Shown here one piece after another: positions 1 through 26,248 of a stretch of 32,000 nucleotides of DNA. Position 1 is the stretch's first letter. Every line of letters begins with the position of its first letter. The DNA lies in the NCBI GenBank assembly GCA_045631965.1, contig JAZQVR010000032.1, forward strand, positions 1 through 32,000. Reading direction: 5' to 3'. The notes beneath the pieces were generated by a model that saw only the letters and a program-made list of their open reading frames with translations, ran no database searches and was not told the DNA's origin. This DNA is from Acutalibacteraceae bacterium. GTDB taxonomy: Bacteria; Bacillota; Clostridia; Oscillospirales; Acutalibacteraceae. A program made the position numbers and the translations under genes.

Positions 1-81
1 ATACACTTTTACAACAACGAACGTATCCAATTAAAAACAAAACTGACTCCGCTCGAAAAACGAAGTCAGTATGTCGCTTAA
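1..81 (+). CDS. IS3-family (rve/DDE) transposase, C-terminal fragment; 5' end lies outside the window
   Basis: Frame 1 reads IHFYNNERIQLKTKLTPLEKRSQYVA then a stop at 79-81. The YNxxR-IQ-x-K-LTP-E tail is the conserved C-terminus of IS3-family integrase-core transposases. Confidence 0.6.
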   Translation: MHFYNNERIQLKTKLTPLEKRSQYVA

Positions 82-140
82 TTAAATATTTCTGCCATAG
101 GTGTTCTTTTTGTACTGTCCGCACAATTTGGGGCAGTTCA
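1..140 (+). mobile_element. Right end of an IS3-family insertion sequence (partial)
   Basis: The non-coding tail after the transposase stop ends in ...ggggcagttCA at 140. Its reverse complement begins TGAACTGCCCC, matching the 5'-TG...CA-3' termini usual for IS3-family inverted repeats. The left IR is not in the window, so the end point is inferred. Confidence 0.45.
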
Positions 141-156
141 GACAAATGTGGTTTTT

Positions 157-190
157 ATATGGTGCGAGTGTTCATAAGGGATTTACTCAA
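157..190. repeat. Left junction of the integrative element: 9-bp direct repeat (157-165) plus left terminal inverted repeat (166-190)
   Basis: atatggtgc at 157-165 is identical to 12975-12983. The reverse complement of 166-184 (gagtgttcataagggattt) matches 12955-12973 at 18 of 19 positions. The reverse complement of 185-190 (actcaa) matches ttgagt at 12938-12943. The right copy has a 10-11 nt insertion between these two blocks. Confidence 0.6.
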
Positions 191-273
191 AATACAAGTA
201 AAACCGGCTTCAAACATAGTATTCTTCACTTTGCTCACCTTGATTAAATAGAGTGAAAAGAAAGGATAATACT

Positions 274-636
274 ATGAAAACTAATTATATTACTTGCAGA
301 CGAGTTGGCGACTATAACATTCCTAATCTTGCATTACCACCCGAAGAAGCAAATATCAAACTCGGAAAATGGGGTATGCTACATAAGGATTACCTGCGTA
401 AACACAAGAAAGTATTGTTTGCAACCCTGCTCGCCGAAGGCAAATTGTGGCAGTATCTTGCAGATGTTGATAAACAGGCTCAAGAGATGTTTGATACCCT
501 TGCAGAACAGATGAAAGAAAAAGAAGATGTTACCGAACAGCTCAAAGCCGAAAACCAAATGCTGTGGGTGCAGAAAACGAGTAATATTGAAACAAGGGTG
601 AGAGATGTTGTTAATAAAGGAATAATATTCAAATAG
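274..636 (+). CDS. tnpV: TnpV-family transposon-encoded protein
   Basis: The translation (GDYNIPNLALP...LGKWGMLHKDYLRKH...GKLWQYLADVDKQAQEMFDTLAEQM...TEQLKAENQMLWVQ) follows the conserved TnpV pattern of clostridial Tn4451-like elements. ATG at 274 has an AAAGGA Shine-Dalgarno (SD) 7 nt upstream. The track ORF starts at an upstream GTG (253). Confidence 0.8.
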   Translation: MKTNYITCRRVGDYNIPNLALPPEEANIKLGKWGMLHKDYLRKHKKVLFATLLAEGKLWQYLADVDKQAQEMFDTLAEQMKEKEDVTEQLKAENQMLWVQKTSNIETRVRDVVNKGIIFK

Positions 637-643
637 TAGCAAT

Positions 644-668
644 AGCGACAGGAAATTACCCTGTCGCT
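644..668 (+). terminator. Stem-loop after tnpV (weak intrinsic terminator)
   Basis: agcgacagg (644-652) pairs with cctgtcgct (660-668) around a 7-nt loop. The following T tract is poor. Confidence 0.4.
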
Positions 669-685
669 ATTAATTTCTATCTGGA

Positions 686-714
686 TTGATTTTTTATGTA
701 TAAAAGAGTATAAT
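686..714 (+). promoter_or_regulatory. Sigma70-type promoter for the helicase/GNAT/HEPN cassette
   Basis: TTGATT (686-691), 17-nt spacer, TATAAT (709-714). GGAGG SD at 794-798 precedes the ATG at 806. Confidence 0.5.
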
Positions 715-805
715 TATCTTTAGATGAACTATCGAAGCTGAATAGAAAGTTTAACAATACAAAATATTGTGAATTATATCAATATTATAAAACGGAGGAA
801 CCATT

Positions 806-2830
806 ATGAGAAAGTATGGAGACTATAGCGAGTTAACAGAGATAAATGCAAGCGAAATTAATAATATTGTCCAAAAAATTGAATCAGCAAAAATAGAATG
901 CACATTATTCTATGGTTTTCCATTGATAGAACTCGATAATACATCGACAATAATGAAGGGTTGTATCATAAGTGCAAAAGGAATTATGATACTGCACGAT
1001 TCTGATATAGAAAAAAAGGTTTATTGGCGTCATATAAATAAAACAATTATGGAATGTCCTTCTGTGAGTGACCTCGCAATGGATCCCACAAGCGGATTGA
1101 TTTCCTTCAAAAAATGTAATGATGTTGATGGAATTCTTGAACATTTGCGTAATAGTAACGACCTTATGTCTATTAGTGATGTAGATTTATTGGTTGCCGT
1201 TATACAAAAAGCATATAATCTTTCAAAATTTGATAACCGAAGCATACAGAAAGAAGATTCAATTGGTAGCATTATAAAGAAACGAAACAATAAAGTTAGT
1301 ATTTTGGATGAGGAACAGTTTGAAACTATATATAAAACACAAACAGGACATGCTAGAATTAGAGGGTTAGCAGGTAGTGGTAAGACCATACTGTTGGCAA
1401 AGAAAATGGCATATTTACATTATAGAAATCCCGAATCAAGAATAGCATATGTATTTTATACTATTTCGTTAAAACAGTTTGTTGATAAGCTGTTTCGTTC
1501 TTTTTATAAAGAATTTGATCCCTATAACGAACCTGATATGTCTAAGATAAGTATTTTACACTCATGGGGAAACAAACATACCGATGGGTTTTATTCTACA
1601 ATTTGCAAGCATTTTAACGTAGAAAGAAAAACATTGAGTGATGTTTATGGAAAAAAAGATAAGTTGGATGCTGTTTGTACGGATTTATTAGAACAATTAA
1701 AAAAACAGGATATCGGTATTTTTGATTATGTATTTATAGACGAAGCACAGGATTTTTCAATTGGCTTTTTTAAATTAGCATTGAAATCACTTAAGCCTAC
1801 AGGAAAATTCATTTACGCATATGATGAATTGCAATCGCTTAACGAAGGAAATAAAATGCCATCAAAATATAGCATTTTTCATAATAAACCATGCGAAGAT
1901 ATAAATTTATCTGTTTGCTACAGAACTCCTAAGGAGATTTTGGTAACAGCACATGCACTAGGATTAGGTATTTATAAGAAGTCTGAAGATGGTTCACCTG
2001 ATATGGTAAATATGATTCAAGATATTGATACCTGGGCGGCAATAGGTTATGATGTTATTGAAGGCAATTTATCTTACGGCCAGCATGTGGTTTTAGGCAG
2101 AAAAGATGTTATTGATGAAAAGTGTAATGATAGTGTAATTATACTTGAAAAAGAAGACCAAATTGAACAGTATAAATATGTTAGAGACGAAATTCTTGAT
2201 TTGATTATCAATCAAGATGTAAGTCCAGATGATATAATGATTATTGACTTGGATTCAATAAACTTAAATGATGATTTTCTTTTATTTCGAAAGGTTTTCA
2301 CTGAAAAATCATGGAATGAAGAAAGTGAAGATTGGATTTGTGGAGTGAATCTTGTCAATAAGGATAATGCTGTTAAGTTTAGAATGAAAAATAATATTCC
2401 GTTTACTACAATTTTTAGAGCAAAAGGTAATGAAGCTAACATAGTTTTTATTTTAAATGCACATAAACTTAGGTCAATTTCCTCATATTCTAGAAACCGA
2501 ATCTTTACTGCTATGACGCGAGCTAGATTCAAAGTTTATTTGTTAGGTACAGGCAATATGAAAACATTTATCGAAGAAGCTGAAACTGTAAAAAGAAATA
2601 ATTATACTTTGAATTTCACATATCCAACAAAAACTCAATTACAGAAGATGTCAACAATTGCAAAAACTGAAATGCAAACTGCAAAGGATTACAATGCAAT
2701 TGTTGATTTGTTCAAAAATCTTAAGACAAACCCAGCATTAATTCAAGAAATTCTGTTAGAACAGATGGGAGCAGGTTCTTTAGAAGAACTGATGGATATG
2801 ATAAAAGAAAGTGACGATGGAGATGAGTAA
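806..2830 (+). CDS. SF1 (UvrD/Rep-like, COG3972-type) helicase-family ATPase with an unassigned ~180-aa N-terminal domain
   Basis: Walker A GLAGSGKT (nt 1364-1387). Motif II FIDEAQDF (1733-1756). CYRTPKEI. FRAKGNEANIVF. Motif VI-like TAMTRARF (2507-2530). Acidic C-terminal tail. Confidence 0.8.
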   Translation: MRKYGDYSELTEINASEINNIVQKIESAKIECTLFYGFPLIELDNTSTIMKGCIISAKGIMILHDSDIEKKVYWRHINKTIMECPSVSDLAMDPTSGLISFKKCNDVDGILEHLRNSNDLMSISDVDLLVAVIQKAYNLSKFDNRSIQKEDSIGSIIKKRNNKVSILDEEQFETIYKTQTGHARIRGLAGSGKTILLAKKMAYLHYRNPESRIAYVFYTISLKQFVDKLFRSFYKEFDPYNEPDMSKISILHSWGNKHTDGFYSTICKHFNVERKTLSDVYGKKDKLDAVCTDLLEQLKKQDIGIFDYVFIDEAQDFSIGFFKLALKSLKPTGKFIYAYDELQSLNEGNKMPSKYSIFHNKPCEDINLSVCYRTPKEILVTAHALGLGIYKKSEDGSPDMVNMIQDIDTWAAIGYDVIEGNLSYGQHVVLGRKDVIDEKCNDSVIILEKEDQIEQYKYVRDEILDLIINQDVSPDDIMIIDLDSINLNDDFLLFRKVFTEKSWNEESEDWICGVNLVNKDNAVKFRMKNNIPFTTIFRAKGNEANIVFILNAHKLRSISSYSRNRIFTAMTRARFKVYLLGTGNMKTFIEEAETVKRNNYTLNFTYPTKTQLQKMSTIAKTEMQTAKDYNAIVDLFKNLKTNPALIQEILLEQMGAGSLEELMDMIKESDDGDE

Positions 2831-3431
2831 ATCCAAGAAAGTGAAAGAAAGTGAAAGAATTTATCATGAATGGCAATGGATATATGAAAATTTTCCACAT
2901 TTTGATTCTTTATTAGACGTAAAAAGTCCAGTAATTTCAGGTTCTGTTATTGGATATAATGTTGGACATTTTAAACCTAACAACTATTCTGAAGTATACA
3001 ATAAGACTGTGGAAGAAGAATTATATTCTATTTATTTGTTAGATGAATCGTTGATTAATTTTTATTATATTTTTGATTCATCCGGAAAAATTGTTGGACA
3101 TAATTTGATGTACATTCCATCGCCAATTGACGAAAATGGTGTTATAAGTGAAGAAATTGCTTTTTCAAAATTTTTGCGTGTGGATTTTGACCAAAAAGGA
3201 TATGAGAACATTGTTCATACGCAGGTTCATTTACATGTTAGTATCTACAAAACGGAGTTTAGGGTTCCATTGGGGCATTACTTATCTCCAAAGGAATTCC
3301 TATACATAGTATTAAAGTATATATGTCATAGTAAAGAACCTTTTGTCGATAAGCTATTAACAAGTGACAAACATGATATATTACTTAATGCAGATGAAGC
3401 GGATAAATTACGATTATTATTTGGAGAATAA
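2811..3431 (+). CDS. Hypothetical 206-aa protein, no motif recognised; translationally coupled to the helicase gene
   Basis: Long ORF overlapping the helicase stop (2828-2830). Possible starts are GTG 2811, ATG 2817 and ATG 2823. It ends 1 nt before the next start. It has the same AT-rich codon style as its neighbours. Confidence 0.65.
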   Translation: MTMEMSKSKKVKESERIYHEWQWIYENFPHFDSLLDVKSPVISGSVIGYNVGHFKPNNYSEVYNKTVEEELYSIYLLDESLINFYYIFDSSGKIVGHNLMYIPSPIDENGVISEEIAFSKFLRVDFDQKGYENIVHTQVHLHVSIYKTEFRVPLGHYLSPKEFLYIVLKYICHSKEPFVDKLLTSDKHDILLNADEADKLRLLFGE

Positions 3432-3432
3432 A

Positions 3433-3933
3433 ATGAACACAATAATACGCAAAGCCAAACTTGGTGACGAAAAAACACTTGCATACATTCAAACGGAATC
3501 GTGGAAGTCTGCATTTACGGATATAATTTCTGCTGAAGATATGGAAAAATGTACTGATATCGTAAAAGCCGAAGCACTGTATGAGAATGTACTGAAATCC
3601 GGTTATGCTGAAATGTCAATTCTTGAAATTGACAGTAAACCTCATTGTATTGCTGCTTGGAGCAAAGCAAGAAACCCTCAATTTTCGGATTGTGCAGAAC
3701 TTATCTGTATTCACAGTTTGAGTGATAATCGGAGCAAAGGATATGGTTCAATAATGATGAATCATATTCTCAAAGAAATTCAAGATTCAGAATATGACAG
3801 TGTTATACTTTGGGTGTTTGAAAAGAATACTCTTGCTCGTAGTTTTTACGAAAAGCACGGATTTGAGCTTACAGATAACACACAGATTTCTTATGGTGCA
3901 GTTGAAGTTATGTATCGTAAAGAATTAGGGTGA
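3433..3933 (+). CDS. GNAT-family N-acetyltransferase (166 aa)
   Basis: MNTIIRKAKLGDEKTLAYIQ... start. Acetyl-CoA loop R-S-K-G-Y-G (RxxGxG). ARSFYEKHGFE motif. I chose ATG 3433 rather than the track start at 3364, because that extension would overlap the previous gene by 68 nt. Confidence 0.85.
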   Translation: MNTIIRKAKLGDEKTLAYIQTESWKSAFTDIISAEDMEKCTDIVKAEALYENVLKSGYAEMSILEIDSKPHCIAAWSKARNPQFSDCAELICIHSLSDNRSKGYGSIMMNHILKEIQDSEYDSVILWVFEKNTLARSFYEKHGFELTDNTQISYGAVEVMYRKELG

Positions 3934-3937
3934 TAAT

Positions 3938-4831
3938 ATGAGACAAGTATTAATGGACAATGCTTTTGAAGCGTGGGCATCAGCCATACGTTTTTGCAAT
4001 GATATTAAAGATGGAAAAGCAACGCTACAGTATCAAAAGAATTTTGTGTCGTCACTTCATAATGCTGTCGAGCTTATTATGAAGCAAATGATGTTGAATA
4101 ACAATGATCACCGTGTCGCAGAAATAAGAAATCCGGAAAATGAAGTTGACGCAAAACTGTTACTTAATTATTTTAAGGCAACTGATTTAAATCGCTTTTT
4201 CAATTCACTATCAGATGACGAACTATCGAAATTTAGCACAATTCAATTTAATAAGCTGATTGAATTGCATAAAAAAGTGTTTGGACATAGCCTTAAAACA
4301 GGAGAATCTTTGAAAACAGAACTCAAGCTGTTGCAACAGTTGAGAAACAACGAAACACATTTTATTATACATCAAGGTGGTTTCTTATCTGAAGAAGATT
4401 TCTGCGTACTTCATAATTTCATGGTTAGATTCTATAAAATTATGAAAACATGGTGTCCTGTGGATAGTGATGATATTGAATTATCTATCTTTCTTTATTG
4501 GGATTGTAATAATCCAACTGATGACGATAGTGTTTATGGATTTGATTGTGAGCCATTGCAGGAGTTTTCCTATGAAACTGCTGTTAAAAATTCAAAGTTA
4601 GCAAAGAATATAGCAGAAGTACTTAAAGGTGATTATCAGTATGGTGCTCCTGATTTTTCAGCTTACACTATTGCAAAAGATTTAGCAGAAGGATACAACG
4701 GACTTTTAGCAACATTTGATGAAATATGGGCAATAGTGTATATGATGCAATGTTTAGGGATAATTGTTATAAAGGATATACTAGATGAAGAAAATGGTAC
4801 AGTTTATTATGATATGAAAGTTCTTTTATGA
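3938..4831 (+). CDS. HEPN-domain protein (putative RNase), 297 aa
   Basis: The N-terminal half looks helical by eye. LQQL-R-N-N-E-T-H at nt 4343-4360 is an Rx4H motif with the typical polar residue after R. The start is 4 nt after the GNAT stop. Confidence 0.65.
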   Translation: MRQVLMDNAFEAWASAIRFCNDIKDGKATLQYQKNFVSSLHNAVELIMKQMMLNNNDHRVAEIRNPENEVDAKLLLNYFKATDLNRFFNSLSDDELSKFSTIQFNKLIELHKKVFGHSLKTGESLKTELKLLQQLRNNETHFIIHQGGFLSEEDFCVLHNFMVRFYKIMKTWCPVDSDDIELSIFLYWDCNNPTDDDSVYGFDCEPLQEFSYETAVKNSKLAKNIAEVLKGDYQYGAPDFSAYTIAKDLAEGYNGLLATFDEIWAIVYMMQCLGIIVIKDILDEENGTVYYDMKVLL

Positions 4832-4905
4832 CGCTTTTTATTGGTGTCGGCAAAATCGTCTCTTCTCTTTATAAAAAGCATTTAATTGTGCGAAATAATA
4901 AAAAC

Positions 4906-4934
4906 TTGACAAAGCAATATTTTTGTGTTATTCT
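4906..4934 (+). promoter_or_regulatory. Sigma70-type promoter with extended -10, inside a 7-bp inverted repeat
   Basis: TTGACA (4906-4911), 17-nt spacer, TG-n-TATTCT (-10 at 4929-4934). ttgacaa and ttgtcaa form inverted arms around it, a possible operator. Confidence 0.45.
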
Positions 4935-4961
4935 TGTCAAAATTCAATTTGAGGTATTATT

Positions 4962-5075
4962 ATGGACGCATATCTTCTCAAAAATCTTGATATGGATATG
5001 AATTGGCTTGCACAGGATGATTATCATTCATCAATGGGCAGGCTTATACCTCTATATTCATTTTGGGATAGATAA
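4962..5075 (+). promoter_or_regulatory. 37-codon leader ORF (MDAYLLKNLDMDMNWLAQDDYHSSMGRLIPLYSFWDR) upstream of a terminator
   Basis: ATG 4962 is preceded by a GAGG SD (4951-4954). Stop at 5073-5075. It is too short for the ORF track. It lies between the promoter and the 5098-5138 terminator. Confidence 0.3.
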
Positions 5076-5097
5076 CATTATTTTTCCATATGTTTAT

Positions 5098-5138
5098 AAC
5101 GGTGTAAGTTGCTGCAGAAACTTACACCGTTTATTTTT
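5098..5138 (+). terminator. Strong intrinsic terminator / attenuator immediately upstream of the methyltransferase gene
   Basis: aacggtgtaagtt (5098-5110) pairs perfectly with aacttacaccgtt (5119-5131). 8-nt loop. T-rich tail tatttttat. Confidence 0.75.
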
Positions 5139-5159
5139 ATATCCAAAGGAGAAATTTTC

Positions 5160-5993
5160 ATGAGATTTTTTGATTTTATAAGTAAAAGATTTTTTAAGAA
5201 ACAACCTTCAAAAACAGGCAATCATCTTGTGGATTTCTATAACCGCATTGATGAAGATTCCCGTCTTTTATCAAAACACGGAAGAATTGAATTCCTTACC
5301 ACTACAAAGTATATTGAGAAATATCTGAGTAACAATATGAAAATTATGGAAATTGGTGCGGCTACAGGCAGATATTCACATTACTTTGCGCAAAAAGGTT
5401 TCGAGGTTGATGCAGTTGAACTTATTGAACATAATATCGAAATATTCAAGTCAAAAACCTTGCCCGATGAAAAAGTCAGCATCAGACAGGGAAACGCTGT
5501 CAATCTTGCTGAATATCCCGATAACAGTTACGACATAACGCTTCTATTGGGGCCGATGTATCATCTTTACACTGCTGAAGGGCAGAAAAAAGCACTTTCA
5601 GAGGCAATCAGAATTACCAAACCCGACGGACATATCTTTGTTGCATACTGTATGCTTGAACCGAGCATACTAGGACAATTTAAAAGAAATCAGATGGACA
5701 AGCTTATTGAAATGGGATTATTCAATCCTAAAAGTCTTGATGCCTATTTTACACCCGAAGGTATTTTCAAGCTCTATACCAGAGATGAAATATTTGAGTT
5801 AACGGCAGACCTTAATGCGGAAAGAATGCATTTTCTTGCAACCGATGGTTATGCCTGTCATATGTGTGAAGTAATAGACAAAATGGATAACGAAACCTAT
5901 GAACTGTATTTGAGATATCATTTTAAAACCTGTGAAAGACAGGATTTAGTAGGCATATCACACCACACACTCGATGTGCTGAGGAAGGAGTAG
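5160..5993 (+). CDS. Class I SAM-dependent methyltransferase (277 aa)
   Basis: Motif I IMEIGAATGRY. Acidic residue at AVELIE. LLLGPMYHL post-motif. AAAGGAG SD at 5146-5152. The track start at 5109 would include the terminator hairpin. Confidence 0.85.
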   Translation: MRFFDFISKRFFKKQPSKTGNHLVDFYNRIDEDSRLLSKHGRIEFLTTTKYIEKYLSNNMKIMEIGAATGRYSHYFAQKGFEVDAVELIEHNIEIFKSKTLPDEKVSIRQGNAVNLAEYPDNSYDITLLLGPMYHLYTAEGQKKALSEAIRITKPDGHIFVAYCMLEPSILGQFKRNQMDKLIEMGLFNPKSLDAYFTPEGIFKLYTRDEIFELTADLNAERMHFLATDGYACHMCEVIDKMDNETYELYLRYHFKTCERQDLVGISHHTLDVLRKE

Positions 5994-5998
5994 ACACT

Positions 5999-7120
5999 AT
6001 GATTAAATATCCGAACTATGACAGAAGCATACTTTCAATTGCATCATCTGTTTTAAACCATTTCGGCGTAAAGGACTGTCAGCATAAGACCTTACCCGAA
6101 TTTGATAAATTACTTGAAAAAGACTACAAAAATATTATAGTAATTCTTTTTGACGGATTAGGGACTTCAACCCTGAACTGCCACCTTAAAGAAAATGACT
6201 TTTTGAGAAGGCATTATATAACCGATATTTCTTCTGTTTTTCCGTCAACAACTGTTGCTGCAACCACATCAATTTTAAGTGGCTATTCTCCGTTGGAATG
6301 TGGATGGCTCGGTTGGGACTTGTACTTTGAGGAAATAGGAGAAAATGTTGCAGTTTTCAAAAATACTTTACAGAGAAACGGTGAGCCTGCTGCAAAATAT
6401 AATGTTGCAAATAGGTATATCCCTGTTAAAAATGTTATGCAAAGAATTGAAGCGATAAAGGGCAGAAAAAGTGCTTACTGTGTAGCATTTTTTTCAAAAT
6501 TCCGCATCAAAAGTGTTGAAGATATTTGCAAGACAATATACAAGCTCTCGAAAAAGAGAAAGAAAAAATACATATATGCATATTGGCATCAGCCTGACAG
6601 TGCAATGCATAGGTACGGAGTAACAAGTCCTGAAGCACATAAAGAGATTCTGCATATCAACAGTGAGGTTGAAAAGCTTTGCAGTAATTTAAAGGATTCT
6701 CTTATAATCATAACTGCTGACCACGGGCTGTGTAATAGTGTAAATTTATTCCTTGAAGACTATCCTGAACTTTACAATATGTTGAAAATACCACCATCAA
6801 TTGAGCCCGGCAGAGCTATGAGTCTATTTGTAAAGGATGGCTTACAGGATGAATTTAAAAACGAGTTCAATAAACTTTTTGGTGATTTATTCATACTTAA
6901 GACAAAGGAAGAGGTATTCTCCGAAAACCTTTTAGGCTACGGTGAACCGCACCCGAGAACACAAGGATTTATTGGTGATTTTCTCGCCATAGCAACAACC
7001 GAAAAAACATTGTTTACAGCAAGAGAAGAACACGAATTCATTGGTGTTCACGCAGGGCTCACGGAAGAAGAAATGACTGTTCCGTTCATTGCCATCGAAA
7101 CAGAAAAGAGTCGAAAATAA
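5999..7120 (+). CDS. Alkaline-phosphatase-superfamily protein (type I phosphodiesterase / nucleotide pyrophosphatase-like)
   Basis: ILFDGLG...FPSTTVAATTSILSG (metal ligand plus nucleophilic Thr region). WHQPDSAMHRYG. ITADHG. The SD GAGGAAGGAG lies inside the 3' end of the methyltransferase gene. Confidence 0.75.
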   Translation: MIKYPNYDRSILSIASSVLNHFGVKDCQHKTLPEFDKLLEKDYKNIIVILFDGLGTSTLNCHLKENDFLRRHYITDISSVFPSTTVAATTSILSGYSPLECGWLGWDLYFEEIGENVAVFKNTLQRNGEPAAKYNVANRYIPVKNVMQRIEAIKGRKSAYCVAFFSKFRIKSVEDICKTIYKLSKKRKKKYIYAYWHQPDSAMHRYGVTSPEAHKEILHINSEVEKLCSNLKDSLIIITADHGLCNSVNLFLEDYPELYNMLKIPPSIEPGRAMSLFVKDGLQDEFKNEFNKLFGDLFILKTKEEVFSENLLGYGEPHPRTQGFIGDFLAIATTEKTLFTAREEHEFIGVHAGLTEEEMTVPFIAIETEKSRK

Positions 7121-7140
7121 TGACGCTGAAACAAAAAAAT

Positions 7141-7176
7141 AAAACAGATAAAACAGATAAAACACATAAAAAACAC
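7141..7176. repeat. 9-bp tandem repeat aaaacagat x2, then degenerate aaaacacat and aaaaaacac
   Basis: Read directly at 7141-7149, 7150-7158, 7159-7167 and 7168-7176. Confidence 0.8.
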
Positions 7177-7204
7177 ACCTGTTCTTGAAATAGAAAGTTT
7201 CTCT

Positions 7205-7242
7205 GATGGTGTCGGTGAAAACCGACACCATCTTTTATTTTT
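7205..7242 (+). terminator. Intrinsic terminator of the methyltransferase-phosphodiesterase operon
   Basis: gatggtgtcggt (7205-7216), GAAA loop, accgacaccatc (7221-7232): a perfect 12-bp stem. Followed by ttttattttt. Confidence 0.85.
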
Positions 7243-7253
7243 CGAAAAAGATC

Positions 7254-7282
7254 TTGACAAGGAAACAAATGTTCTATATAAT
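7254..7282 (+). promoter_or_regulatory. Consensus sigma70 promoter with no ORF downstream
   Basis: TTGACA (7254-7259), exactly 17 nt, TATAAT (7277-7282). Confidence 0.6.
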
Positions 7283-7288
7283 AATAAA

Positions 7289-7526
7289 TTGGTAAATAAT
7301 GTATTTGCCTTACAACTAAATATCAGCTGAAACACACATTTTTTTACTTATTGGCTTTATGCCAACACATATTATCTGACCGAAGAAAGTATAGTCCGAT
7401 ACTCGGTTAGTAACATACGGACAATCAGAGCTTAAAGATTAAGCCGTTACATAGTTTCAGTACAAACTGTGCGAGAGGATGAAATGTCCTCCCGCTATTT
7501 GTGCTGTCTATGTGACGGCTTTTTTA
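7289..7526 (+). ncRNA. Candidate ~240-nt structured non-coding RNA (unknown class)
   Basis: It lies between the consensus promoter and a terminator-like structure. The outer stem is agccgttacatag (7442-7454) with ctatgtgacggct (7508-7520), 13 bp including one G-U. An inner hairpin spans 7471-7496. The T run is at 7521-7526. Only very short ORFs (about 6 codons) start at ATGs inside it. Additional local hairpins are present, for example ttggc/gccaa at 7352-7366. Confidence 0.4.
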
Positions 7527-7860
7527 TTGTGCAATTTTAACAAAAATAAAAAAGTTTTCAAATTTGTTTAATTTTTTGCCGTTCTAAACCCTTACCCCTT
7601 GGGGGATGTTTTTTCTCGTGTACCTTGACAACTGAATGACCGTCTGAAAGTGATATGACTTTGCGATGATATGAGCGAGGCAACGTTCCGGTGAAATTCC
7701 GGGACAGGAACTATTTCGGGTGAAACGGCAAAAAGAGGTTTTTGATATGTAGTTAATGGAATTACCCTACTAAAGAAATAAAACTCATTTCAGACGAAAA
7801 AATCATCAAAAATCAACCCGAAAAGCTACAGTAAAAAGGAGTGTGATAGTTATTCCGAGG

Positions 7861-8028
7861 ATGACCAAAAGTAAAAAATCAGAATGGAGCCTGTTCCTGA
7901 ATGAACGAAACAGAATCTGCTATAACCATATTTGCAGAAGATGTGTTAAAAGCTGCAAACAGAGCTTCAGGGCTGTGGTTATATCCTGCAACTATGTATC
8001 AAAAAGGAGTGTGAAAGATAGTGGATAA
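7861..8028 (+). CDS. Small cysteine-rich protein (CxxC...C...C), putative zinc-binding
   Basis: MTKSKKSEWSLFLNERNRICYNHICRRCVKSCKQSFRAVVISCNY. It overlaps the next gene's start by 8 nt. The start is uncertain: ATG 7861, or GTG 7843, which sits only 1 nt after the GGAG. Confidence 0.45.
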   Translation: MTKSKKSEWSLFLNERNRICYNHICRRCVKSCKQSFRAVVISCNYVSKRSVKDSG

Positions 8029-8353
8029 TGAAATCTTCTTCAAAATGCCGAAGGTGTTGTTTACAGATAAATACAAAGGCTTATCTGCCGAAGCAAAGCT
8101 GCTTTACGGCTTGATGCTCGATAGGATGCAGTTGTCGGCAATTAACGGTTGGTGTGATAAAAACGGCGAGGTGTTTATCTTTTACACCATTGCCGAAACG
8201 AGTGAGGTGCTTGGGTGCGGTCATGACAAGGCAACAAGGCTACAGCGTGAGCTTGTGAAACGTAACCTGCTCTGTCGCAAATATCAGGGCAAGGGTAAGC
8301 CTGCAAAGCTGTATGTTTTAACTGTGCCGAAAACAAGCACTGAGCCTTCGTAA
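8021..8353 (+). CDS. Replication initiator A N-terminal domain (RepA_N) protein, probably truncated
   Basis: FFKMPKVLFTDKYKGLSAEAKLLYGLMLDRMQLSAINGWCDKNGEVFIFYT is the RepA_N signature. At 110 aa, only the N-terminal domain is present. Confidence 0.7.
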   Translation: MDNEIFFKMPKVLFTDKYKGLSAEAKLLYGLMLDRMQLSAINGWCDKNGEVFIFYTIAETSEVLGCGHDKATRLQRELVKRNLLCRKYQGKGKPAKLYVLTVPKTSTEPS

Positions 8354-8635
8354 AAGCCGCAAGTAATAAGACTGAGCAGAGTAAAACTGAAAGTTATATA
8401 CCAACCGAGAAAAGAGAAATATATCTTTAATTTAGTTAGTAGTAACTTTAAGTATATAAGGCGGCTTAGATGAATGAGAACGGCTGATGAAACATCGCAT
8501 TTCTTCTTCGGCTTGTAAAATATTTTAATAATCATGAACATTTTTGTAGTGCTTATTCTCATTGCAATTAGGGGCGGTTTTAATATATAAAAACTGCCCC
8601 CACTAATGTGAGAGCAGTGAAAATGTTCTTATAAA

Positions 8636-9070
8636 TTATATAAATCCTCTTTGCTTTGCTTCTTCAATCAGCTTTGGTTGAATTAATGGATATGTCCAAT
8701 TTTCCACTAATGTATCTGTAATAAAGACTTTTTCCATTTCACTATGTAATTCGTTTTCAAAAGTCTTAATATCTGCAAAAAACAACATGCCATAGGTCTC
8801 TTCACCTGTTTCGTTCACTTTGTTTTTGCCTGTTACAGAATAAACACAAATAGGAGAAATGTCGAAATCCAAGGCACCGGTTTCTTCTTTTAACTCTCTT
8901 TTCGCAGTTTCTAAAATATCTTCATTTTCCTCTCTATGACCTCCAGGAACTTCGTAAGTGTTTCTTTCTTTGTGCTTGCAAAACACCCATTTCCCATTTG
9001 TTTTAGAAATAATAACTGCAAACTTCAAACACTCATCTGCTACTTGGTTATAAAATTTAACTTCTAACAT
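8636..9070 (-). CDS. NUDIX hydrolase (144 aa)
   Basis: Nudix box GGHREENEDILETAKRELKEETG (Gx5Ex7REUxEExGU). Confidence 0.9.
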   Translation of the reverse strand: MLEVKFYNQVADECLKFAVIISKTNGKWVFCKHKERNTYEVPGGHREENEDILETAKRELKEETGALDFDISPICVYSVTGKNKVNETGEETYGMLFFADIKTFENELHSEMEKVFITDTLVENWTYPLIQPKLIEEAKQRGFI

Positions 9071-9151
9071 TTTATCAACATCTCCGTAAACCTTAATTAG
9101 TTTAGATGATTATATCACATACTTACCAAACAAATCAACATGAATACATAT

Positions 9152-9185
9152 CCTTGTACTTAAAGTTTCAGTACGAGGATTTTTT
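9152..9185 (+). promoter_or_regulatory. Terminator-like hairpin whose 3' arm contains the SD of the first RHH gene
   Basis: ccttgtact (9152-9160) pairs with agtacgagg (9170-9178), 9 bp with one G-U. T run at 9180-9185. GAGG at 9174-9177 lies 9 nt (8 nt if read as GAGGA) before the ATG at 9187. Confidence 0.35.
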
Positions 9186-9186
9186 A

Positions 9187-9699
9187 ATGCAAATTTTTAA
9201 AGTAAAGGAAGTGAAAAAATGCTTTAGCAAACAAACCGAAAAAACAGTAAAAAAGCGTGGCATAAGTCTTAACAAGCACTGGATTTGTGCATACAAATCC
9301 CACTTGTTAGGGACTGCCCCTAAAACCCGAAAGCCAGGAGGTGAAAAATTGAAGCTGACAAAAACAATATTTTTGTATCTGAATGAGAAAGAATTTTCAA
9401 TGCTCACAAAGGATGCCGAAAGAGCAAATATGAGCAGGTCACGGTATATCAGGCATCAGATTGATAATGCAAAAATGAAGCCCACTTTGGATATGGACTA
9501 TGAGAAATATATTAATCTGCTTGAGCCTATATGTGACAAGCTGAGCATCGTTTCAAAAAGAGTGTGGCAAACCAAAATGTTGGATGTTGTAATGCTTCGT
9601 GAAGTTCTTAAAAGCACAAATGAAATTATGCCCGAAATCATAAAAGCAAAGGAGGTGGCACAGTGCGTACAAGAGCGAGAAGAATCGCAGTTAGAGTAA
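9187..9699 (+). CDS. Ribbon-helix-helix (MobC/CopG-like) protein
   Basis: KTRKPGGEKLKLTKTIFLYLNEKEFSMLTKDAERANMSRSRYIRHQI fits the RHH/MobC pattern (beta strand, helix, G/N-x-S-x-S-x-YIR). Start chosen at ATG 9187 with its GAGGA SD. An alternative is TTG 9349 after GGAGG. The track start at 9106 is unlikely. Confidence 0.55.
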   Translation: MQIFKVKEVKKCFSKQTEKTVKKRGISLNKHWICAYKSHLLGTAPKTRKPGGEKLKLTKTIFLYLNEKEFSMLTKDAERANMSRSRYIRHQIDNAKMKPTLDMDYEKYINLLEPICDKLSIVSKRVWQTKMLDVVMLREVLKSTNEIMPEIIKAKEVAQCVQEREESQLE

Positions 9700-10001
9700 G
9701 TGAAGAGCAGTATAACAAAATCAGCCGTTTGACAGAGCGAAGCTTTTTTACTAAGGAGCAGGTGCTGAGGGATATTATCCTCGGCTATCCGATTCAGGAA
9801 GACAGAAAGCCTGAATGTATGGAGTTTATTCTGAAGCTCCGTGGAATTGCAAGTGCTTTAAACAATCTTTTCAGAAACTACGGCTTATCAGATTTACCAA
9901 TCGGTAAGGAAATGAAACAGACCGCTGATGCGGTTGAGGATACAGAGAATCTAATTGAAGATTGTATTTTTATCACAAGAATGAAAAGGAGAATTAAATG
10001 A
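9663..10001 (+). CDS. Second ribbon-helix-helix (MobC-like) protein
   Basis: RARRIAVRVSEEQYNKISRLTERSFFTKEQVLRDII. GTG start with a GGAGG SD at 9651-9655. It overlaps the upstream gene by 37 nt. Confidence 0.6.
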   Translation: MRTRARRIAVRVSEEQYNKISRLTERSFFTKEQVLRDIILGYPIQEDRKPECMEFILKLRGIASALNNLFRNYGLSDLPIGKEMKQTADAVEDTENLIEDCIFITRMKRRIK

Positions 10002-10915
10002 ATAAAGAAGAAAATTTTATTAACACCCTGTTTGAGAAAACAGAAGAAACAGAGGCTGTAGAGTCTCAGACAACCGAAATCATAAATATGGCCGTAGGAA
10101 GAATTGTTCCCAATTTTAAGAATCCGTACAAATGCCGTGAGGAAGATATGAAGCCGTTGGAAGACAGTATCCGTGAAAATGGTATTATACAGCCCATTAT
10201 GGTGCGAAAGGACGATAAGGCTGATGTGTATGAAATCATATCAGGTCACAGACGTTTTCTTGCAGCAACAAGACTTAATCTGACAGAGGTTCCCGTTGTT
10301 GTATTGGACATAAGCAAAGAGGAAGCAGATATTATTCTTGTTGACAGCAATCTCCATCGTGAGCATATTCTCCCCTCGGAAAAAGCCTTTGCATACAAGA
10401 TGAAAATGGATGCCATTAAAAGGCAAGGTAAACGCACAGATTTAACTTCGGACCAAGTCGGACCGAAGTTATCTGCAGATGAGATTTCTGACAGTGACAG
10501 TGCATCTCAGGTAAAAAGATATATCCGTCTTACTAACCTGATTCCAAGGCTTCTTACTTTGGTAGATAGCGGTAAAATCGCACTTGGTCCTGCTGTTGAG
10601 CTTTCATATCTCGGCCAAGGTCATCAGAACTTTTTGGCTGAGGCTATTGAGAAAGAGCTTGCTACACCTTCCCTTGCACAGGCTCAGAAATTGAAGAAGC
10701 TGGCACAAGAGGGAAATCTTGATGTCGGTACAATTCTTAGTATGGTTAAACAAACAAAACCTAATCAGGTCGTTACAGTTAAAATCCCCGAGGATAAAAT
10801 CAGTAAATATATGAAATCTACTGCTACCGTAAAGGAAAAGGAAGATTTTCTTGCAAAGGCGGTTGAATATTACGGTAAGTATCTTCAGAGACAGAAAGAC
10901 AGAGGTGCGAGATAA
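9998..10915 (+). CDS. ParB/Srx-like N-terminal domain protein
   Basis: IQPIMVRK...YEIISGHRRFLAATRLNLTEVPVVV...ILVDSNLHRE...PSEKAFAYK is the ParB N-terminal domain signature (GHRR box). ATGA start/stop overlap with the upstream gene. Confidence 0.85.
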   Translation: MNKEENFINTLFEKTEETEAVESQTTEIINMAVGRIVPNFKNPYKCREEDMKPLEDSIRENGIIQPIMVRKDDKADVYEIISGHRRFLAATRLNLTEVPVVVLDISKEEADIILVDSNLHREHILPSEKAFAYKMKMDAIKRQGKRTDLTSDQVGPKLSADEISDSDSASQVKRYIRLTNLIPRLLTLVDSGKIALGPAVELSYLGQGHQNFLAEAIEKELATPSLAQAQKLKKLAQEGNLDVGTILSMVKQTKPNQVVTVKIPEDKISKYMKSTATVKEKEDFLAKAVEYYGKYLQRQKDRGAR

Positions 10916-11151
10916 TGAAAAAGATAAAGGATTTTTACGGTCTTATTGGTGAAGAAGAATATGTTATTGACGGTGTCCTTTACAAGGTTTCTTCCAAGTT
11001 CGCACCCGTGAATATTTCAAAGATTGAAAACACCATAAGCGACAAAGCACAAAAATATGTTGGCAGTGATTTTGCACATTTGACAAGTGCCGATGATAGA
11101 AATACAATGAATGCAGAATATATATGTTTGACTGCCGGGAAGGAGGACTAA
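10915..11151 (+). CDS. tnpW: Small TnpW-like transposon protein
   Basis: 78-aa ORF immediately upstream of, and overlapping (TAATG), the serine recombinase gene. The central IDGVLYKVSSKF...ISDK and C-terminal ...EYICLTAGKED resemble TnpW-type proteins. The functional assignment is tentative. Confidence 0.5.
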   Translation: MKKIKDFYGLIGEEEYVIDGVLYKVSSKFAPVNISKIENTISDKAQKYVGSDFAHLTSADDRNTMNAEYICLTAGKED

Positions 11152-12854
11152 TGCAGTCTGATGCAAATATCGGAATTACTGCTATCTACTGCCGTTTATC
11201 GAGAGATGACGGTACAGAAACAGAGAGTAATTCAATCGGCAACCAAAAGAAAATGCTGACACAAAAGGCAAAGGAATTAGGTTTAACAAATACCAAGTAT
11301 TATGTTGATGACGGCTATACAGGCACAAACTTCAACAGACCTGCTTTTCAGGAGCTTCTTGACGATATTGAAATGGGATATATCTCAGTTGTTATTGTGA
11401 AAGACCTTTCCCGATTAGGACGAGATTATGTTTCGGTTGGTCATTATACGGACAACTATTTCCCTGAGCATAACGTAAGGTTTATTGCTGTTAATGATAT
11501 GGTTGACAGTGATGAGGGTGAAAACGAAATTGCACCATTCAAGAATGTTATGAATGAAATGTATGCGAGGGATATTTCAAGAAAAGTACGCTCTGCACAC
11601 AGAATCAGGGGTAATATGGGAGAGCCGTTATCACAGCCACCATATGGGTATATGAAGAATCTTGAAAACAAGAAAAAATGGATAATTGATACCGAAGCTG
11701 CTGAGGTAGTCAGGGACATTTACAAAATGTGCCTTGAGGGTATGGGTAATGAAGCTATTGCAGGAGAATTGCAAAAGAGAGAAATTCTTATCCCTATGGC
11801 ATATTGGCAAAGCAAAGGCTTGAATCGTGGCGGTAAGAAAACTCAATCGAATCCGTACAAGTGGTGCAAGACAACTGTACAGAAAATACTCTGTCAACAG
11901 GAATACTGCGGTGATGTTATCAACTTTAAGACCTATTCCAAGAACTTCAAGAACAAAACCCGTATAGATAACCCCGTAGAGAATTGGAAAATCTTCAAGG
12001 ATGTTCACGAGCCTATTATTGACCGTGATACTTGGGAAATGGTACAGAAGCATACTGCACAAACAAAACGCAGAGCACCTAAAAAAGAGAATGCAAGAAA
12101 GCATATCTTTAGCGGTCTTATCCGTTGTGCAGATTGCGGAAGTAATATGAGGTATCACACAAATACTGTCAACAAGGATATTCACTATTTCAGTTGCAGT
12201 AACTATGTAAAGGATACCCGTGGAACCTGTCAGGCTCGACACTATATTCGTGCAGATGCTCTTGAACAGATAGTAATCCTTGAACTGAAACGCCTTGCGA
12301 TAATGCTTCAAAAGGATGAGGAACTTCTAATAGATATTCTTGAAAAGAAGACTAACAAGGATTTCTATGACGAGAAGAAACACCTTGAAGAGCAGTTGCA
12401 GAAAGCAATAGTCCGTCAACAGTCAGTTGCTTCTCTTTATGAAAAGCTGTATGAGGACAATGCAACGGGCAAGGTTACGGATGAATGGTTTACCCACATG
12501 TCCCATAAGTATGAGGTTGAGAGAACAGAGCTGAAGGTCAGGATATTTAACCTGAGAGAAAAGGTTGCAAATATGCAGACAGTTCAGCACAGCAAGGATA
12601 TGTTTATCGGTGCAGTACGAAAGTTTCTTGATATGGATACAATCACAGCACCTCTTATACACGAGCTCATTGACCACATTGATGTGTATGAGGCAGAGGG
12701 CAAGGGTAAAAACAAGACACAGAGAGTTGTGATTCACTACAACTTTGTAGGTTATCTTGAAATACCTGAATCAGACACTCCTTGCTTCACAGCAGGTACC
12801 CGACAGGGAGTAGCAATAGGTTATATTGCGAAACCGACAGAAAAGTCAGCATAA
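11151..12854 (+). CDS. Large serine recombinase (TnpX-like; resolvase catalytic domain, recombinase domain, zinc ribbon, coiled coil)
   Basis: AIYCRLSRDD (catalytic Ser). VKDLSRLGRD. MYARDISRKVR. PYGY. CADCGSNM...FSCSNY...GTC zinc ribbon. ATG 11151 follows an AGGAGG SD. The track start at 11124 is less likely. Confidence 0.9.
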   Translation: MQSDANIGITAIYCRLSRDDGTETESNSIGNQKKMLTQKAKELGLTNTKYYVDDGYTGTNFNRPAFQELLDDIEMGYISVVIVKDLSRLGRDYVSVGHYTDNYFPEHNVRFIAVNDMVDSDEGENEIAPFKNVMNEMYARDISRKVRSAHRIRGNMGEPLSQPPYGYMKNLENKKKWIIDTEAAEVVRDIYKMCLEGMGNEAIAGELQKREILIPMAYWQSKGLNRGGKKTQSNPYKWCKTTVQKILCQQEYCGDVINFKTYSKNFKNKTRIDNPVENWKIFKDVHEPIIDRDTWEMVQKHTAQTKRRAPKKENARKHIFSGLIRCADCGSNMRYHTNTVNKDIHYFSCSNYVKDTRGTCQARHYIRADALEQIVILELKRLAIMLQKDEELLIDILEKKTNKDFYDEKKHLEEQLQKAIVRQQSVASLYEKLYEDNATGKVTDEWFTHMSHKYEVERTELKVRIFNLREKVANMQTVQHSKDMFIGAVRKFLDMDTITAPLIHELIDHIDVYEAEGKGKNKTQRVVIHYNFVGYLEIPESDTPCFTAGTRQGVAIGYIAKPTEKSA

Positions 12855-12930
12855 CAAAAAGTCGCACTCCGAAAGGAATGCGACGATACATAAAAAACTA
12901 TTATATTTAATACAAAACTCTATTTTAAGC

Positions 12931-12973
12931 AAAAAAATTGAGTATTCACAGGTCAAATCCCTTATGAATACTC
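12931..12973 (-). terminator. Intrinsic terminator downstream of tRNA-Leu, built from the element's terminal repeat
   Basis: ttgagtattca (12938-12948) pairs with tgaatactcaa (12964-12974). On the minus strand the hairpin is followed by TTTTTTT (complement of 12931-12937). Confidence 0.6.
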
Positions 12974-12983
12974 AATATGGTGC
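12938..12983. repeat. Right junction of the integrative element: right terminal inverted repeat (12938-12973) plus 9-bp direct repeat (12975-12983)
   Basis: See the left junction. ttgagta...aaatcccttatgaatactc, then a, then atatggtgc. The direct repeat overlaps the last 6 nt (tggtgc = GCACCA on the minus strand) of tRNA-Leu. Confidence 0.6.
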
Positions 12984-13064
12984 CGGTGACCGGACTTGAA
13001 CCGGTACGGTGTTGCCACCGAGGGATTTTAAGTCCCTTGCGTCTGCCGATTTCGCCACACCGGC
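12978..13064 (-). tRNA. tRNA-Leu (anticodon UAA), class II with a long variable arm, CCA encoded
   Basis: The minus strand reads GCCGGTG-TG-GCGAAATCGGCAGACGC-A-AGGGA-CT-TAA-AA-TCCCT-CGGTGGCAACACCGT-ACCGG-TTCAAGT-CCGGT-CACCGGC-A-CCA. All four stems plus the variable stem-loop pair correctly. Confidence 0.9.
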
Positions 13065-13116
13065 TTATATTATTCGGCTATGTAGATAATATAGCATAGC
13101 CGAAGTAATAAGTCAA

Positions 13117-14310: not shown

Positions 14311-14605
14311 AATTGACACTCCTTGGTAATAGAAAATTGACATATTTGATGTTTGCATCATCTGTCATCTTAACAACTGAATTATTATATCACTAAACTT
14401 ATAATATTTCAATACATTTTTATATTCTTTTGCTTTAAAATATAATTTTAATACCGACATTTTAAAATGATTTGTAAACAATCTTGGCATAATTAACAAA
14501 AAACGAGTTTTATACTATACAAAGAAATTCTTTTGGTATATAATACATACACTGATTTTAAATATTATATTATTCTTTTATACTATATACGAAAGGAAAA
14601 GTACT

Positions 14606-25618: not shown

Positions 25619-26248
25619 ATGAAAAAATCGCTGACATTAAATCTTAAAGAATTGAAAACTTACACATCAGAGTGGCTCGAAGAAATAATAAAAAACCGTC
25701 GCAAATTAATGCTGACGGTTTTATCTGTGTTTGGCTTATGGTATGGTACAAGATTATACATAAATTATTCTGCTAATATTATTGAGGTTCTGAACCGGTT
25801 AATACAGCCGTTTATTAATCATCTTACTTTAAAATCGTTTGTTGTATTGCTTATATTGAATCTGATGCCGGTATTATTATCTTTTTTAAGCGGCTTTTTT
25901 GTTTTCGGTATGCCGCTGTCAATGGTTAGCCCGTGCATATCAGGAGCTTTGACAGGCGCTGTAAATGCGTGGATTTTCAGCACATACAGACTTAACGGAG
26001 TCTTTTTTTCGCTGTTGTCAATTATTCCTTTTGCAATAGTGACAACAATAATGCTTCTTGTTTCTTGTAATGAATCCATCATTTTATCGGGTCAGCTGTC
26101 CAAATCTGTTTTTTTAAAAGAAACAGGCGAGAGGGGAGAGGTAAAAGATTTTTTTATAAGACACATAATAATAATGGCTGTTACGGTTGCAGTTACATTT
26201 TTGCAGGTTATTACAATAACAAATCTTTGCGGTAAATTACTTGTCTGA
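25619..26248 (+). CDS. Polytopic membrane protein, possibly stage II sporulation protein M-like
   Basis: About 5 TM segments, 209 aa, next to a Xer-type recombinase gene as for B. subtilis spoIIM/ripX. The assignment is tentative. Confidence 0.4.
   Translation: MKKSLTLNLKELKTYTSEWLEEIIKNRRKLMLTVLSVFGLWYGTRLYINYSANIIEVLNRLIQPFINHLTLKSFVVLLILNLMPVLLSFLSGFFVFGMPLSMVSPCISGALTGAVNAWIFSTYRLNGVFFSLLSIIPFAIVTTIMLLVSCNESIILSGQLSKSVFLKETGERGEVKDFFIRHIIIMAVTVAVTFLQVITITNLCGKLLV

Follow-up and report, generated by a model that had tools for sequence, protein, structure and literature searches.

Positions 686–4831 of a 32,000-nucleotide (nt) stretch of Acutalibacteraceae DNA (contig JAZQVR010000032.1; hereafter the window, whose numbering is used for all coordinates) are very probably a stack of independently mobile cassettes in the cargo slot of a gut Clostridia element, and not one system. 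The region holds four genes on the plus strand. Gene 1 (806–2830) encodes a superfamily 1 (SF1) UvrD-like helicase of 674 amino acids (aa), gene 2 (2811–3431) a DUF2290 protein of 206 aa when read from a GTG, gene 3 (3433–3933) a GNAT N-acetyltransferase of 166 aa from an ATG, and gene 4 (3938–4831) a HEPN-like stand-alone protein of 297 aa. A preliminary description, made from the sequence alone, had proposed these genes as a single new immunity module. What survives of that proposal is that a mobile element carries the genes as cargo of defence type. The new four-gene system fails, because genes 1 and 2 belong to a system that already has a name and because the four genes do not co-occur elsewhere, two outcomes that the description had itself set against its proposal. 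At the loci fetched for comparison (designated L001–L114, all of them bearing homologues), the helicase–DUF2290 pair, gene 4 and the GNAT gene each occur without the rest.

Cassette boundaries

The window from 1 to 13500 was compared by blastn with all fetched loci. A first block, 794–3428 on the plus strand, begins at the gene 1 ribosome-binding site, ends at the stop codon of gene 2 and matches helicase–DUF2290 loci only, at 81% identity in L019 (5978–8612) and at 70–76% in L020–L026 and L111–L112. A second block on the same strand, 3420–4878, contains the GNAT gene and gene 4 and is matched only in L011 (9484–10951; 82.7%); within it, a part with gene 4 alone, at about 3925–4850, is common to all other gene-4 loci at 73–90% identity. 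The junction between the two cassettes is formed by the last codons of gene 2, inside which lies the GGAG ribosome-binding site of the GNAT gene. Outside the cargo, positions 152–628 and 7198–10118 match the backbones of L004, L010 and L011 at 79–93%. The boundaries seen in these alignments show a mosaic of cassettes of predicted defence type, set between the TnpV and serine-recombinase parts of an element backbone. The tight junctions between the genes are accounted for by the stacking of cassettes and not by a conserved operon.

The right edge of the cargo slot (7198–7282, plus strand) is marked by an intact terminator and a perfect TTGACA-17-TATAAT promoter, found by sequence scan and alignment. 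A terminator hairpin and the same perfect TTGACA-17-TATAAT promoter also lie behind gene 4 in L011, L004 and L010. Alignment with these three loci and with 7198–7282 identifies 4831–4878 (plus strand) as the remnant of a truncated terminator hairpin after gene 4, the right arm of which was lost at the start of a methyltransferase/phosphodiesterase cassette. Since only this truncated copy remains, no terminator was seen after gene 4 in the preliminary description.

The unit made up of the hairpin ATGGTGTCGGTGAAAACCGACACCAT, a T-run and the TTGACA-17-TATAAT promoter recurs at the cassette boundaries of the cargo slots of related TnpV elements. Copies are found in L011 (10899–11224), in L004 (8898–9010 and 13109–13500, where it is duplicated around a SIR2 block) and in L010 (after gene 4, from 10892 onward, and 15116–15566). 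Cassettes may be exchanged by way of the homology that this unit provides.

The helicase and DUF2290 genes

The product of gene 1 has the SF1 motifs, including the Walker A lysine K193, a DEAQ motif II and motif VI, and matches Pfam UvrD_C_2 and Viral_helicase1 above their cut-offs. Residues 125–666 match the PADLOC profile PDLC03002 ‘Helicase’ over positions 148–704 of 707 (E 9.4e-116, 386 bits). The NCBIfam equivalog for the STM2767-family helicase is matched at E 2.4e-42, below its cut-off, and there are a weak HelD-like NCBIfam match and weak, partial matches to the GajB models of PADLOC (E 1.9e-5 to 4e-3). The N-terminal 125–160 aa or so lie outside the PADLOC Helicase match, and a weak match to PADLOC ‘NERD+UvrD’ begins only at residue 163; a Pfam scan of residues 1–175 (window 806–1330) finds nothing at E ≤ 10.

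Gene 2, which had been described as encoding an orphan protein, scores 47.7 bits with Pfam PF10053 (DUF2290; E 1.6e-12), where the gathering cut-off is 25, and matches the PADLOC DUF2290 models at E 1e-15 and 2e-14. Its AlphaFold2 (AF2) model is a compact alpha/beta domain with a predicted local distance difference test score (pLDDT) of 87.7. Across 23 DUF2290 sequences, in the numbering of the 202-aa form, the invariant residues are H49, K51, D74, H93, N94, R119, D121, H132, H136, H138, R147, H152 and H169. This set, rich in His, Asp and Arg, would be compatible with a metal-dependent catalytic site.

By these profile matches, genes 1 and 2 are the named Helicase+DUF2290 anti-phage system of Rousset et al. 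2022. The combination had been thought to match no known system; PADLOC models place both genes in this one. Helicase+DUF2290 was found in a P4-satellite hotspot, and its enterobacterial member inhibits phage T7 (PMC9122126). It is tracked by DefenseFinder (as ‘Rst_HelicaseDUF2290’) and by PADLOC, and is treated as a named system in later papers; the literature searched gives no mechanism for it.

A search with the single gene 2 sequence gave 10 homologues, and a profile search gave 22 clusters at 90% identity. Wherever the contig reaches far enough upstream (L019–L026 and L111–L114), each gene 2 homologue is preceded by an overlapping gene for a helicase of 674–675 aa. Orthologues are 72–90% identical for gene 1 and 53–84% for gene 2. 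Gene order across these loci shows the helicase and DUF2290 genes to be a conserved unit with obligate pairing.

The pair occurs in seven other contexts, in some of them beside restriction-modification, CBASS or AbiE genes, and no relative of gene 3 or gene 4 is present in any of the seven. Its downstream neighbour is AbiEi_4 in L019, a peptide deformylase gene followed by CBASS or DUF8370 in L020–L023, a 58-aa open reading frame (ORF) followed by DUF1016_N in L024, a convergent gene in L025, an ArsC-like gene in L111 and L112, and a DDE transposase gene in L113. In L020–L023 the pair lies within a classical defence island that contains two DNA methylases, BpuJI_N/NOV_C, HNH, CBASS and DndB. 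Searches by tblastn gave no relative of gene 2 in phage records or IMG/VR viral contigs (E ≤ 1e-3), and a single weak match in plasmids, to a Corynebacterium DUF2290.

One further locus, L110, is a 1065-nt contig of another metagenome sample; it corresponds to window positions 2458–3522 (96.5% identity), reaching from the last part of gene 1 through gene 2 into the beginning of the GNAT gene. Given this identity, the same element variant circulates in other samples; because it is of the same element lineage, L110 does not represent independent conservation.

The HEPN-like gene

The family of gene 4 comprises 348 homologues or clusters at 90% identity, each at least 66% identical and nearly all of 292–297 aa, and 204 representative clusters at 50% identity. 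The R-x4-H motif of the window protein, R136-N-N-E-T-H141 (4343–4360, plus strand), is conserved in alignments of homologues. Among 34 close homologues, R136, N137, E139, T140 and H141 are invariant. A more diverse set of 86 members, which are 25–70% identical to the window protein, keeps R136 without exception, together with W13, G26, K34, E45 and K49; conservation is at least 90% at N137, E139 and H141.

Weak but consistent profile matches place the N-terminal domain near known HEPN-type families. Twenty-seven of the 86 members match DUF3644 (best E 1.2e-5), two match HEPN_Apea and one matches Csm6_HEPN. The PADLOC profile PDC-S19 is matched at E ≤ 0.001 by 12 of the 86 and by the window protein at E 2.5e-7 (28 bits), with residues 3–176 aligned to positions 7–164 of a 330-position profile; as the match comprises the N-terminal domain only and not the full-length profile, gene 4 was not assigned to PDC-S19. 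DUF3644 has been placed in the HEPN superfamily (Anantharaman et al. 2013, PMC3710099). In HEC-08, a validated single-gene defence with an N-terminal DUF3644, mutation of the Rx4-6H histidine H128 abolished defence (bioRxiv 10.1101/2024.01.29.577857), and in the anti-plasmid system Ishtar (Ist1/Ist2) the N-terminal HEPN domain is DUF3644 in one protein and DUF4145 in the other (bioRxiv 10.64898/2026.07.06.735840).

In the AF2 model (pLDDT 87, predicted template modelling score 0.87), the N-terminal domain, residues 1–171 (about 1–175), is all-helical and the R-x4-H motif lies at the end of helix 126–140. The C-terminal domain, residues 212–297, consists of four helices and a beta-hairpin in a winged-helix-like arrangement. 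Residues 200–297 have no Pfam match at E ≤ 10, and in Foldseek the C-terminus gave low-probability winged-helix matches only (PadR, TFE-alpha and Orc1).

Gene 4 was found in about 12 other contexts, where its upstream neighbours vary and it usually has an upstream intergenic region of its own, of 140–485 bp. These neighbours include a 135-aa gene and a 207-aa gene without known function, DUF2971 and a gene resembling orotidine-monophosphate decarboxylase; in none of the contexts is there a helicase or DUF2290 gene nearby. The surroundings are often of defence type, with HEPN_LA2681, DUF6602 and SLFN/AlbA_2 genes in L001–L003, and a SIR2_2-containing block in L004, L005 and L010. A comparison by hhalign found no relationship between the gene 4 family and the neighbouring HEPN_LA2681 protein. 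In L004, L010, L011 and L018, gene 4 lies on TnpV elements of like kind with different cargo. No copy was found in plasmids by tblastn, and IMG/VR viral contigs contain three, all distant relatives (32–36% identity). As judged from these neighbourhoods, gene 4 is shown to be an independent, widespread single gene that stands alone both on mobile elements and in neighbourhoods of defence type.

The SIR2_2-containing block downstream of gene 4 is itself conserved. It consists of four genes (about 211, 146, 447 and 424 aa; L004 9173–13053, L005 4595–8475, L010 11389–15058), of which the last encodes the SIR2_2 protein; in L004 and L005 a small helix-turn-helix gene stands ahead of it. PADLOC gives only weak SIR2 and PDC-M19A matches for it, and the block may be another uncharacterised defence module.

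The GNAT gene

Gene 3 matches Pfam Acetyltransf_1, FR47 and Acetyltransf_10; its NCBIfam matches are all sub-threshold, and no PADLOC model matches it. Elsewhere, a GNAT gene lies upstream of gene 4 only in L011, where the protein identities to the window are 82.5% for the GNAT and 75% for gene 4. Eighty metagenomic loci with relatives of the GNAT (48–60% identity) were screened, and their contexts are unrelated; 59 of them reach at least 1 kb downstream, and none of these 59 has a relative of gene 1, 2 or 4. Among the remaining cargo of L011 are several further, unrelated GNATs, along with GrpB, an S51 peptidase and others of that sort. The GNAT is best regarded as accessory cargo, presumably unrelated to the neighbouring modules and with no substrate assigned.

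The ORF of the orthologous GNAT in L011 (9094–9999) is longer, having about 135 aa added in frame at the N-terminus, which could be a fusion to, or a read-through of, an upstream gene.

Junctions, signals and composition

Much of the architecture given in the preliminary description is borne out. The four ORFs are co-directional and tightly packed, with junctions of −20, +1 and +4 nt between genes 1/2, 2/3 and 3/4, and the quoted motifs translate exactly where they had been placed (GLAGSGKT, 1364–1387; FIDEAQDF, 1733–1756; TAMTRARF, 2507–2530; RNNETH, 4343–4360). Alignment with homologues and the gene calls of those homologues favour a start of gene 2 at ATG 2817 or 2823. Over the three candidate starts the product is 202–206 aa; with either ATG the two genes would overlap by 14 or 8 nt, which is more likely than 20. 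A GGAGG ribosome-binding site lies upstream of the gene 1 ATG (806). The cassette is also more AT-rich than its surroundings, as had been noted, the GC fractions of genes 1–4 being 0.31, 0.29, 0.36 and 0.32; the backbone of the element stands at 0.38 and the adjoining chromosome at 0.39.

Between 806 and 5098 there is indeed no strong terminator-like site; the sole one listed is a weak 5-bp hairpin (3264–3276) inside gene 2. The proposed promoter at 686–714 (plus strand; TTGATT-17-TATAAT, 10 of 12 consensus positions) does exist and is sensibly placed between the terminator hairpin of TnpV (641–671) and the gene 1 ribosome-binding site. However, promoter-like matches in this AT-rich region number 46, against 37.8 ± 5.8 in shuffled sequence; as the class is barely above chance frequency here, the site is to be read as a consensus match only. 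The junction DNA that holds it, 629–793, has no blastn match in any related locus. The site may drive genes 1–4, and from the arrangement of these signals the four genes probably share one transcript starting there.

The mobile element and its surroundings

The placement of the genes in the cargo slot of a serine-recombinase element is confirmed by the presence of TnpV, RepA_N, NikA-like, ParB_N and recombinase genes. The element is about 13 kb long (approximately 152–13000) and comprises TnpV, cargo, RepA_N (8021–8353), a NUDIX gene on the minus strand, two NikA-like genes, ParB_N and a large serine recombinase with Resolvase, Recombinase, Zn ribbon and DUF4368 domains (11124–12854). TnpV (253–636, plus strand; Pfam PF14198, E 8.6e-40) forms the left-hand backbone and the start of the cargo slot; the DNA of this region is 79% identical to its counterparts in L004 and L010. 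The hairpin at 641–671 that follows it is terminator-like in both directions, with a stem of 12–14 bp on both strands. The backbone as a whole is 88–93% identical to those of L004, L010 and L011, and the cargo is entirely different. A megablast search of 200–13000 against the PLSDB plasmids gave no near match.

The element is inserted beside an F420-ligase-like gene (a 414-aa ORF on the minus strand, 13117–14361) and trkA/trkH; the housekeeping genes beyond it are those for TrkA and TrkH, Dap genes, QueA and Tgt. The insertion sequence reported next to the four genes was not recovered, no transposase domain of that kind being present in the scanned ORFs of the window. Two other genes in the chromosomal part are unlike such an element: a tyrosine recombinase (Phage_integrase with a SAM-like N-terminal domain) among the housekeeping genes on the minus strand at 26237–27226, and a 355-aa ORF at 18427–19494 without a Pfam match.

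The cassette that follows gene 4 (4878–7198) contains two ORFs, 5109–5993 and 5999–7120, for a class-I S-adenosylmethionine methyltransferase and a protein of the type-I phosphodiesterase/alkaline-phosphatase superfamily. The methyltransferase matches PADLOC ‘mad2’ (E 7e-16), and the phosphodiesterase has a borderline match to PglZ (25.6 bits against a cut-off of 25). The cassette has a promoter-like site of its own (4906–4934) and, just before the start codon, a 13-bp terminator-like hairpin (5098–5131). No Rfam family was found in window 1–13000, this hairpin included.

Proposed roles and alternative interpretations

In the proposed scheme, the SF1 helicase would use ATP to translocate on foreign nucleic acid, or would sense it, and the translationally coupled DUF2290 protein would be its partner effector, possibly a metal-dependent hydrolase. 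Gene 4 would separately encode a latent RNase, activated on invasion, whose winged-helix-like C-terminal domain senses or binds nucleic acid, in a manner analogous to that of the single-gene HEPN defences HEC-08 and Ishtar. The stacking of the cassettes would have removed intergenic DNA, and a later insertion would have truncated the terminator after gene 4. Co-transcription of the four genes would then be an accident of assembly and not a functional requirement; that it functionally couples the two modules is highly unlikely.

Several observations weigh against this account. The roles of the window genes in phage defence are predictions from sequence and models. The subfamily of genes 1 and 2 is rare and distant from the enterobacterial system that was tested, and a lactococcal Helicase+DUF2290 did not protect against the phages with which it was challenged (PMC11381338). 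The structure predictions suggested in the preliminary description yielded AF2 models for both DUF2290 and gene 4, but neither has a significant Foldseek match: DUF2290 finds nothing in the PDB at E ≤ 0.001, and the full-length gene 4 model finds nothing in the PDB or BFVD at the same threshold. As its model has no structural match, an effector role for DUF2290 is something that we infer. For gene 4, the profile of the family finds nothing among PDB sequences even at E ≤ 10, and the match of the window protein to Pfam DUF3644 is weak (E 0.0034, 17.4 bits against a cut-off of 27.6). Of the original domain calls, the SF1 helicase, the GNAT and the conserved R-x4-H hold; the HEPN fold is a putative one, supported by motif and profile, for which the Foldseek search gave no significant match. 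Finally, the tight junctions and the near-identical gene 2–GNAT junction of L110 make co-expression, with some functional interplay, possible.

These junctions are also what would argue for the original reading, in which all four genes are one new immune or abortive-infection system with a helicase sensor, a HEPN effector and DUF2290 and the GNAT as accessories. The genes are co-directional and closely spaced (also if the first junction is −14 or −8 nt instead of −20), they have a single plausible promoter and no strong terminator among them, and the gene 2–GNAT junction is present in a second sample. That sample, however, holds the same element lineage; outside it, the combination is absent from the seven helicase–DUF2290 and about 12 gene-4 contexts, the break in the homology blocks falls precisely where gene 2 meets gene 3, and genes 1 and 2 alone already make a complete named system. 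The four-gene system is largely refuted by this missing co-occurrence and is hardly credible. A smaller module, in which the GNAT and gene 4 act together apart from Helicase+DUF2290, for instance with the acetyltransferase restraining or modifying the HEPN protein or its target in the manner of a toxin–antitoxin pair, accords with the 4-nt spacer and with the recurrence of both genes in L011 as one 1.47-kb homology block that starts at the GNAT ribosome-binding site. Yet gene 4 is without an adjoining GNAT in at least 11 other contexts, none of the 59 informative GNAT-relative loci encodes a gene 4 relative, the unrelated GNATs of the L011 cargo mean that the adjacency there may be incidental, and the GNAT is unknown to the PADLOC models; we regard such a module as improbable.

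It is very unlikely, too, that the genes have no immune role, with the helicase and DUF2290 serving DNA processing of the element or host repair and gene 4 encoding a regulator and not an RNase. The inactive lactococcal system, a window phenotype read from sequence only, the HelD-like match of gene 1, and a fold search for gene 4 that is negative for HEPN and gives only weak matches of winged-helix type are all in keeping with this. Against it, the pair is mobile among elements that are unrelated to one another and defence islands of the chromosome with restriction-modification, CBASS, Dnd and AbiE genes, which is not the pattern of a backbone function, and the related backbones of L004, L010 and L011 lack it; inhibition of phage T7 is published for the family (PMC9122126). 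Gene 4, for its part, has kept a HEPN-type motif whose arginine is invariant and whose histidine is nearly so, and its neighbours include HEPN_LA2681, SLFN/AlbA_2, SIR2 and DUF2971 genes. A stack of independent cassettes remains the interpretation that we favour.

A further, tentative proposal is that the gene-4 family is a stand-alone immune gene directed against phages or plasmids and, separately, that DUF2290 is a catalytic His/Asp effector with a fold that has no solved relative; taken jointly, the two are possible rather than probable. The combination of a DUF3644-like N-terminal and a winged-helix-like C-terminal domain in gene 4 differs from HEC-08, Ishtar and PDC-S19, and it exists in hundreds of variants on gut Clostridia elements.

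The locus illustrates that tight packing in transposon cargo can mimic a system encoded by an operon when the genes are really a stack of independent cassettes. A divergent Helicase+DUF2290 pair of gut Clostridia on a TnpV/serine-recombinase element is one more indication that elements of this kind transport defence genes. With the Helicase+DUF2290 system and single-gene defences of the HEPN kind already known, the residual novelty is modest and lies in the gene-4 family and in the structurally unmatched DUF2290. The former, with its 348 clusters at 90% identity, shared cargo slot and different neighbours, is a reasonable candidate for defence screening; for the latter, the invariant His, Asp and Arg residues are concrete targets for mutagenesis.

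Comparison with known systems

The window pair resembles Helicase+DUF2290 in its organization, the gene for a UvrD-like SF1 helicase of about 675 aa being overlapped by a downstream gene for a DUF2290 protein of about 200 aa, and in being carried on mobile elements and in defence islands. It differs from the tested members in belonging to a rare, divergent clostridial subfamily (the 22 gene 2 clusters given above), and from the members on P4 satellites in its location in a TnpV/serine-recombinase element. With Gabija it shares the plan of a two-gene defence system in which a UvrD-like SF1 helicase is joined by a second protein. Gabija was rejected for the window, in which the GajB matches are weak and partial and there is neither a GajA-like protein nor a TOPRIM/OLD or ABC ATPase protein; Hachiman, Nhi/Hna and Mokosh were ruled out on domain content.

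Like HEC-08, Ishtar and PDC-S19, gene 4 encodes a stand-alone protein of about 300 aa with an N-terminal DUF3644-related domain that carries Rx4-6H, joined to a C-terminal domain that differs from case to case, and like HEC-08 and Ishtar it is distributed patchily on mobile elements and near defence genes. Its C-terminal domain of four helices and a beta-hairpin is unlike the zinc-finger-like domains of HEC-08 and unlike the domain of 5–7 strands and three helices of Ishtar, as far as the descriptions of these proteins set them apart. Toxin–antitoxin arrangements were considered as well. For HEPN–MNT, the neighbours of gene 4 in the window are the GNAT and the methyltransferase, and no nucleotidyltransferase Pfam family is found among its neighbours elsewhere; for a GNAT with an RHH (ribbon-helix-helix)/DUF1778 antitoxin of the TacT/AtaT type, the gene upstream of the GNAT is that for DUF2290, which ends 1 nt before it. 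Both were rejected.

The element itself is of a familiar kind. Clostridial elements of the Tn4451/Tn5397 type combine TnpV with a large serine recombinase resembling TnpX or TndX, and their classical cargo is catP or tet(M). The window element follows this plan, with TnpV at one end, a DUF4368-tailed large serine recombinase at the other and accessory cargo beside TnpV. It departs from it in its larger size (about 13 kb), in the presence of RepA_N, two NikA-like genes and ParB_N, and in carrying cargo of defence type.

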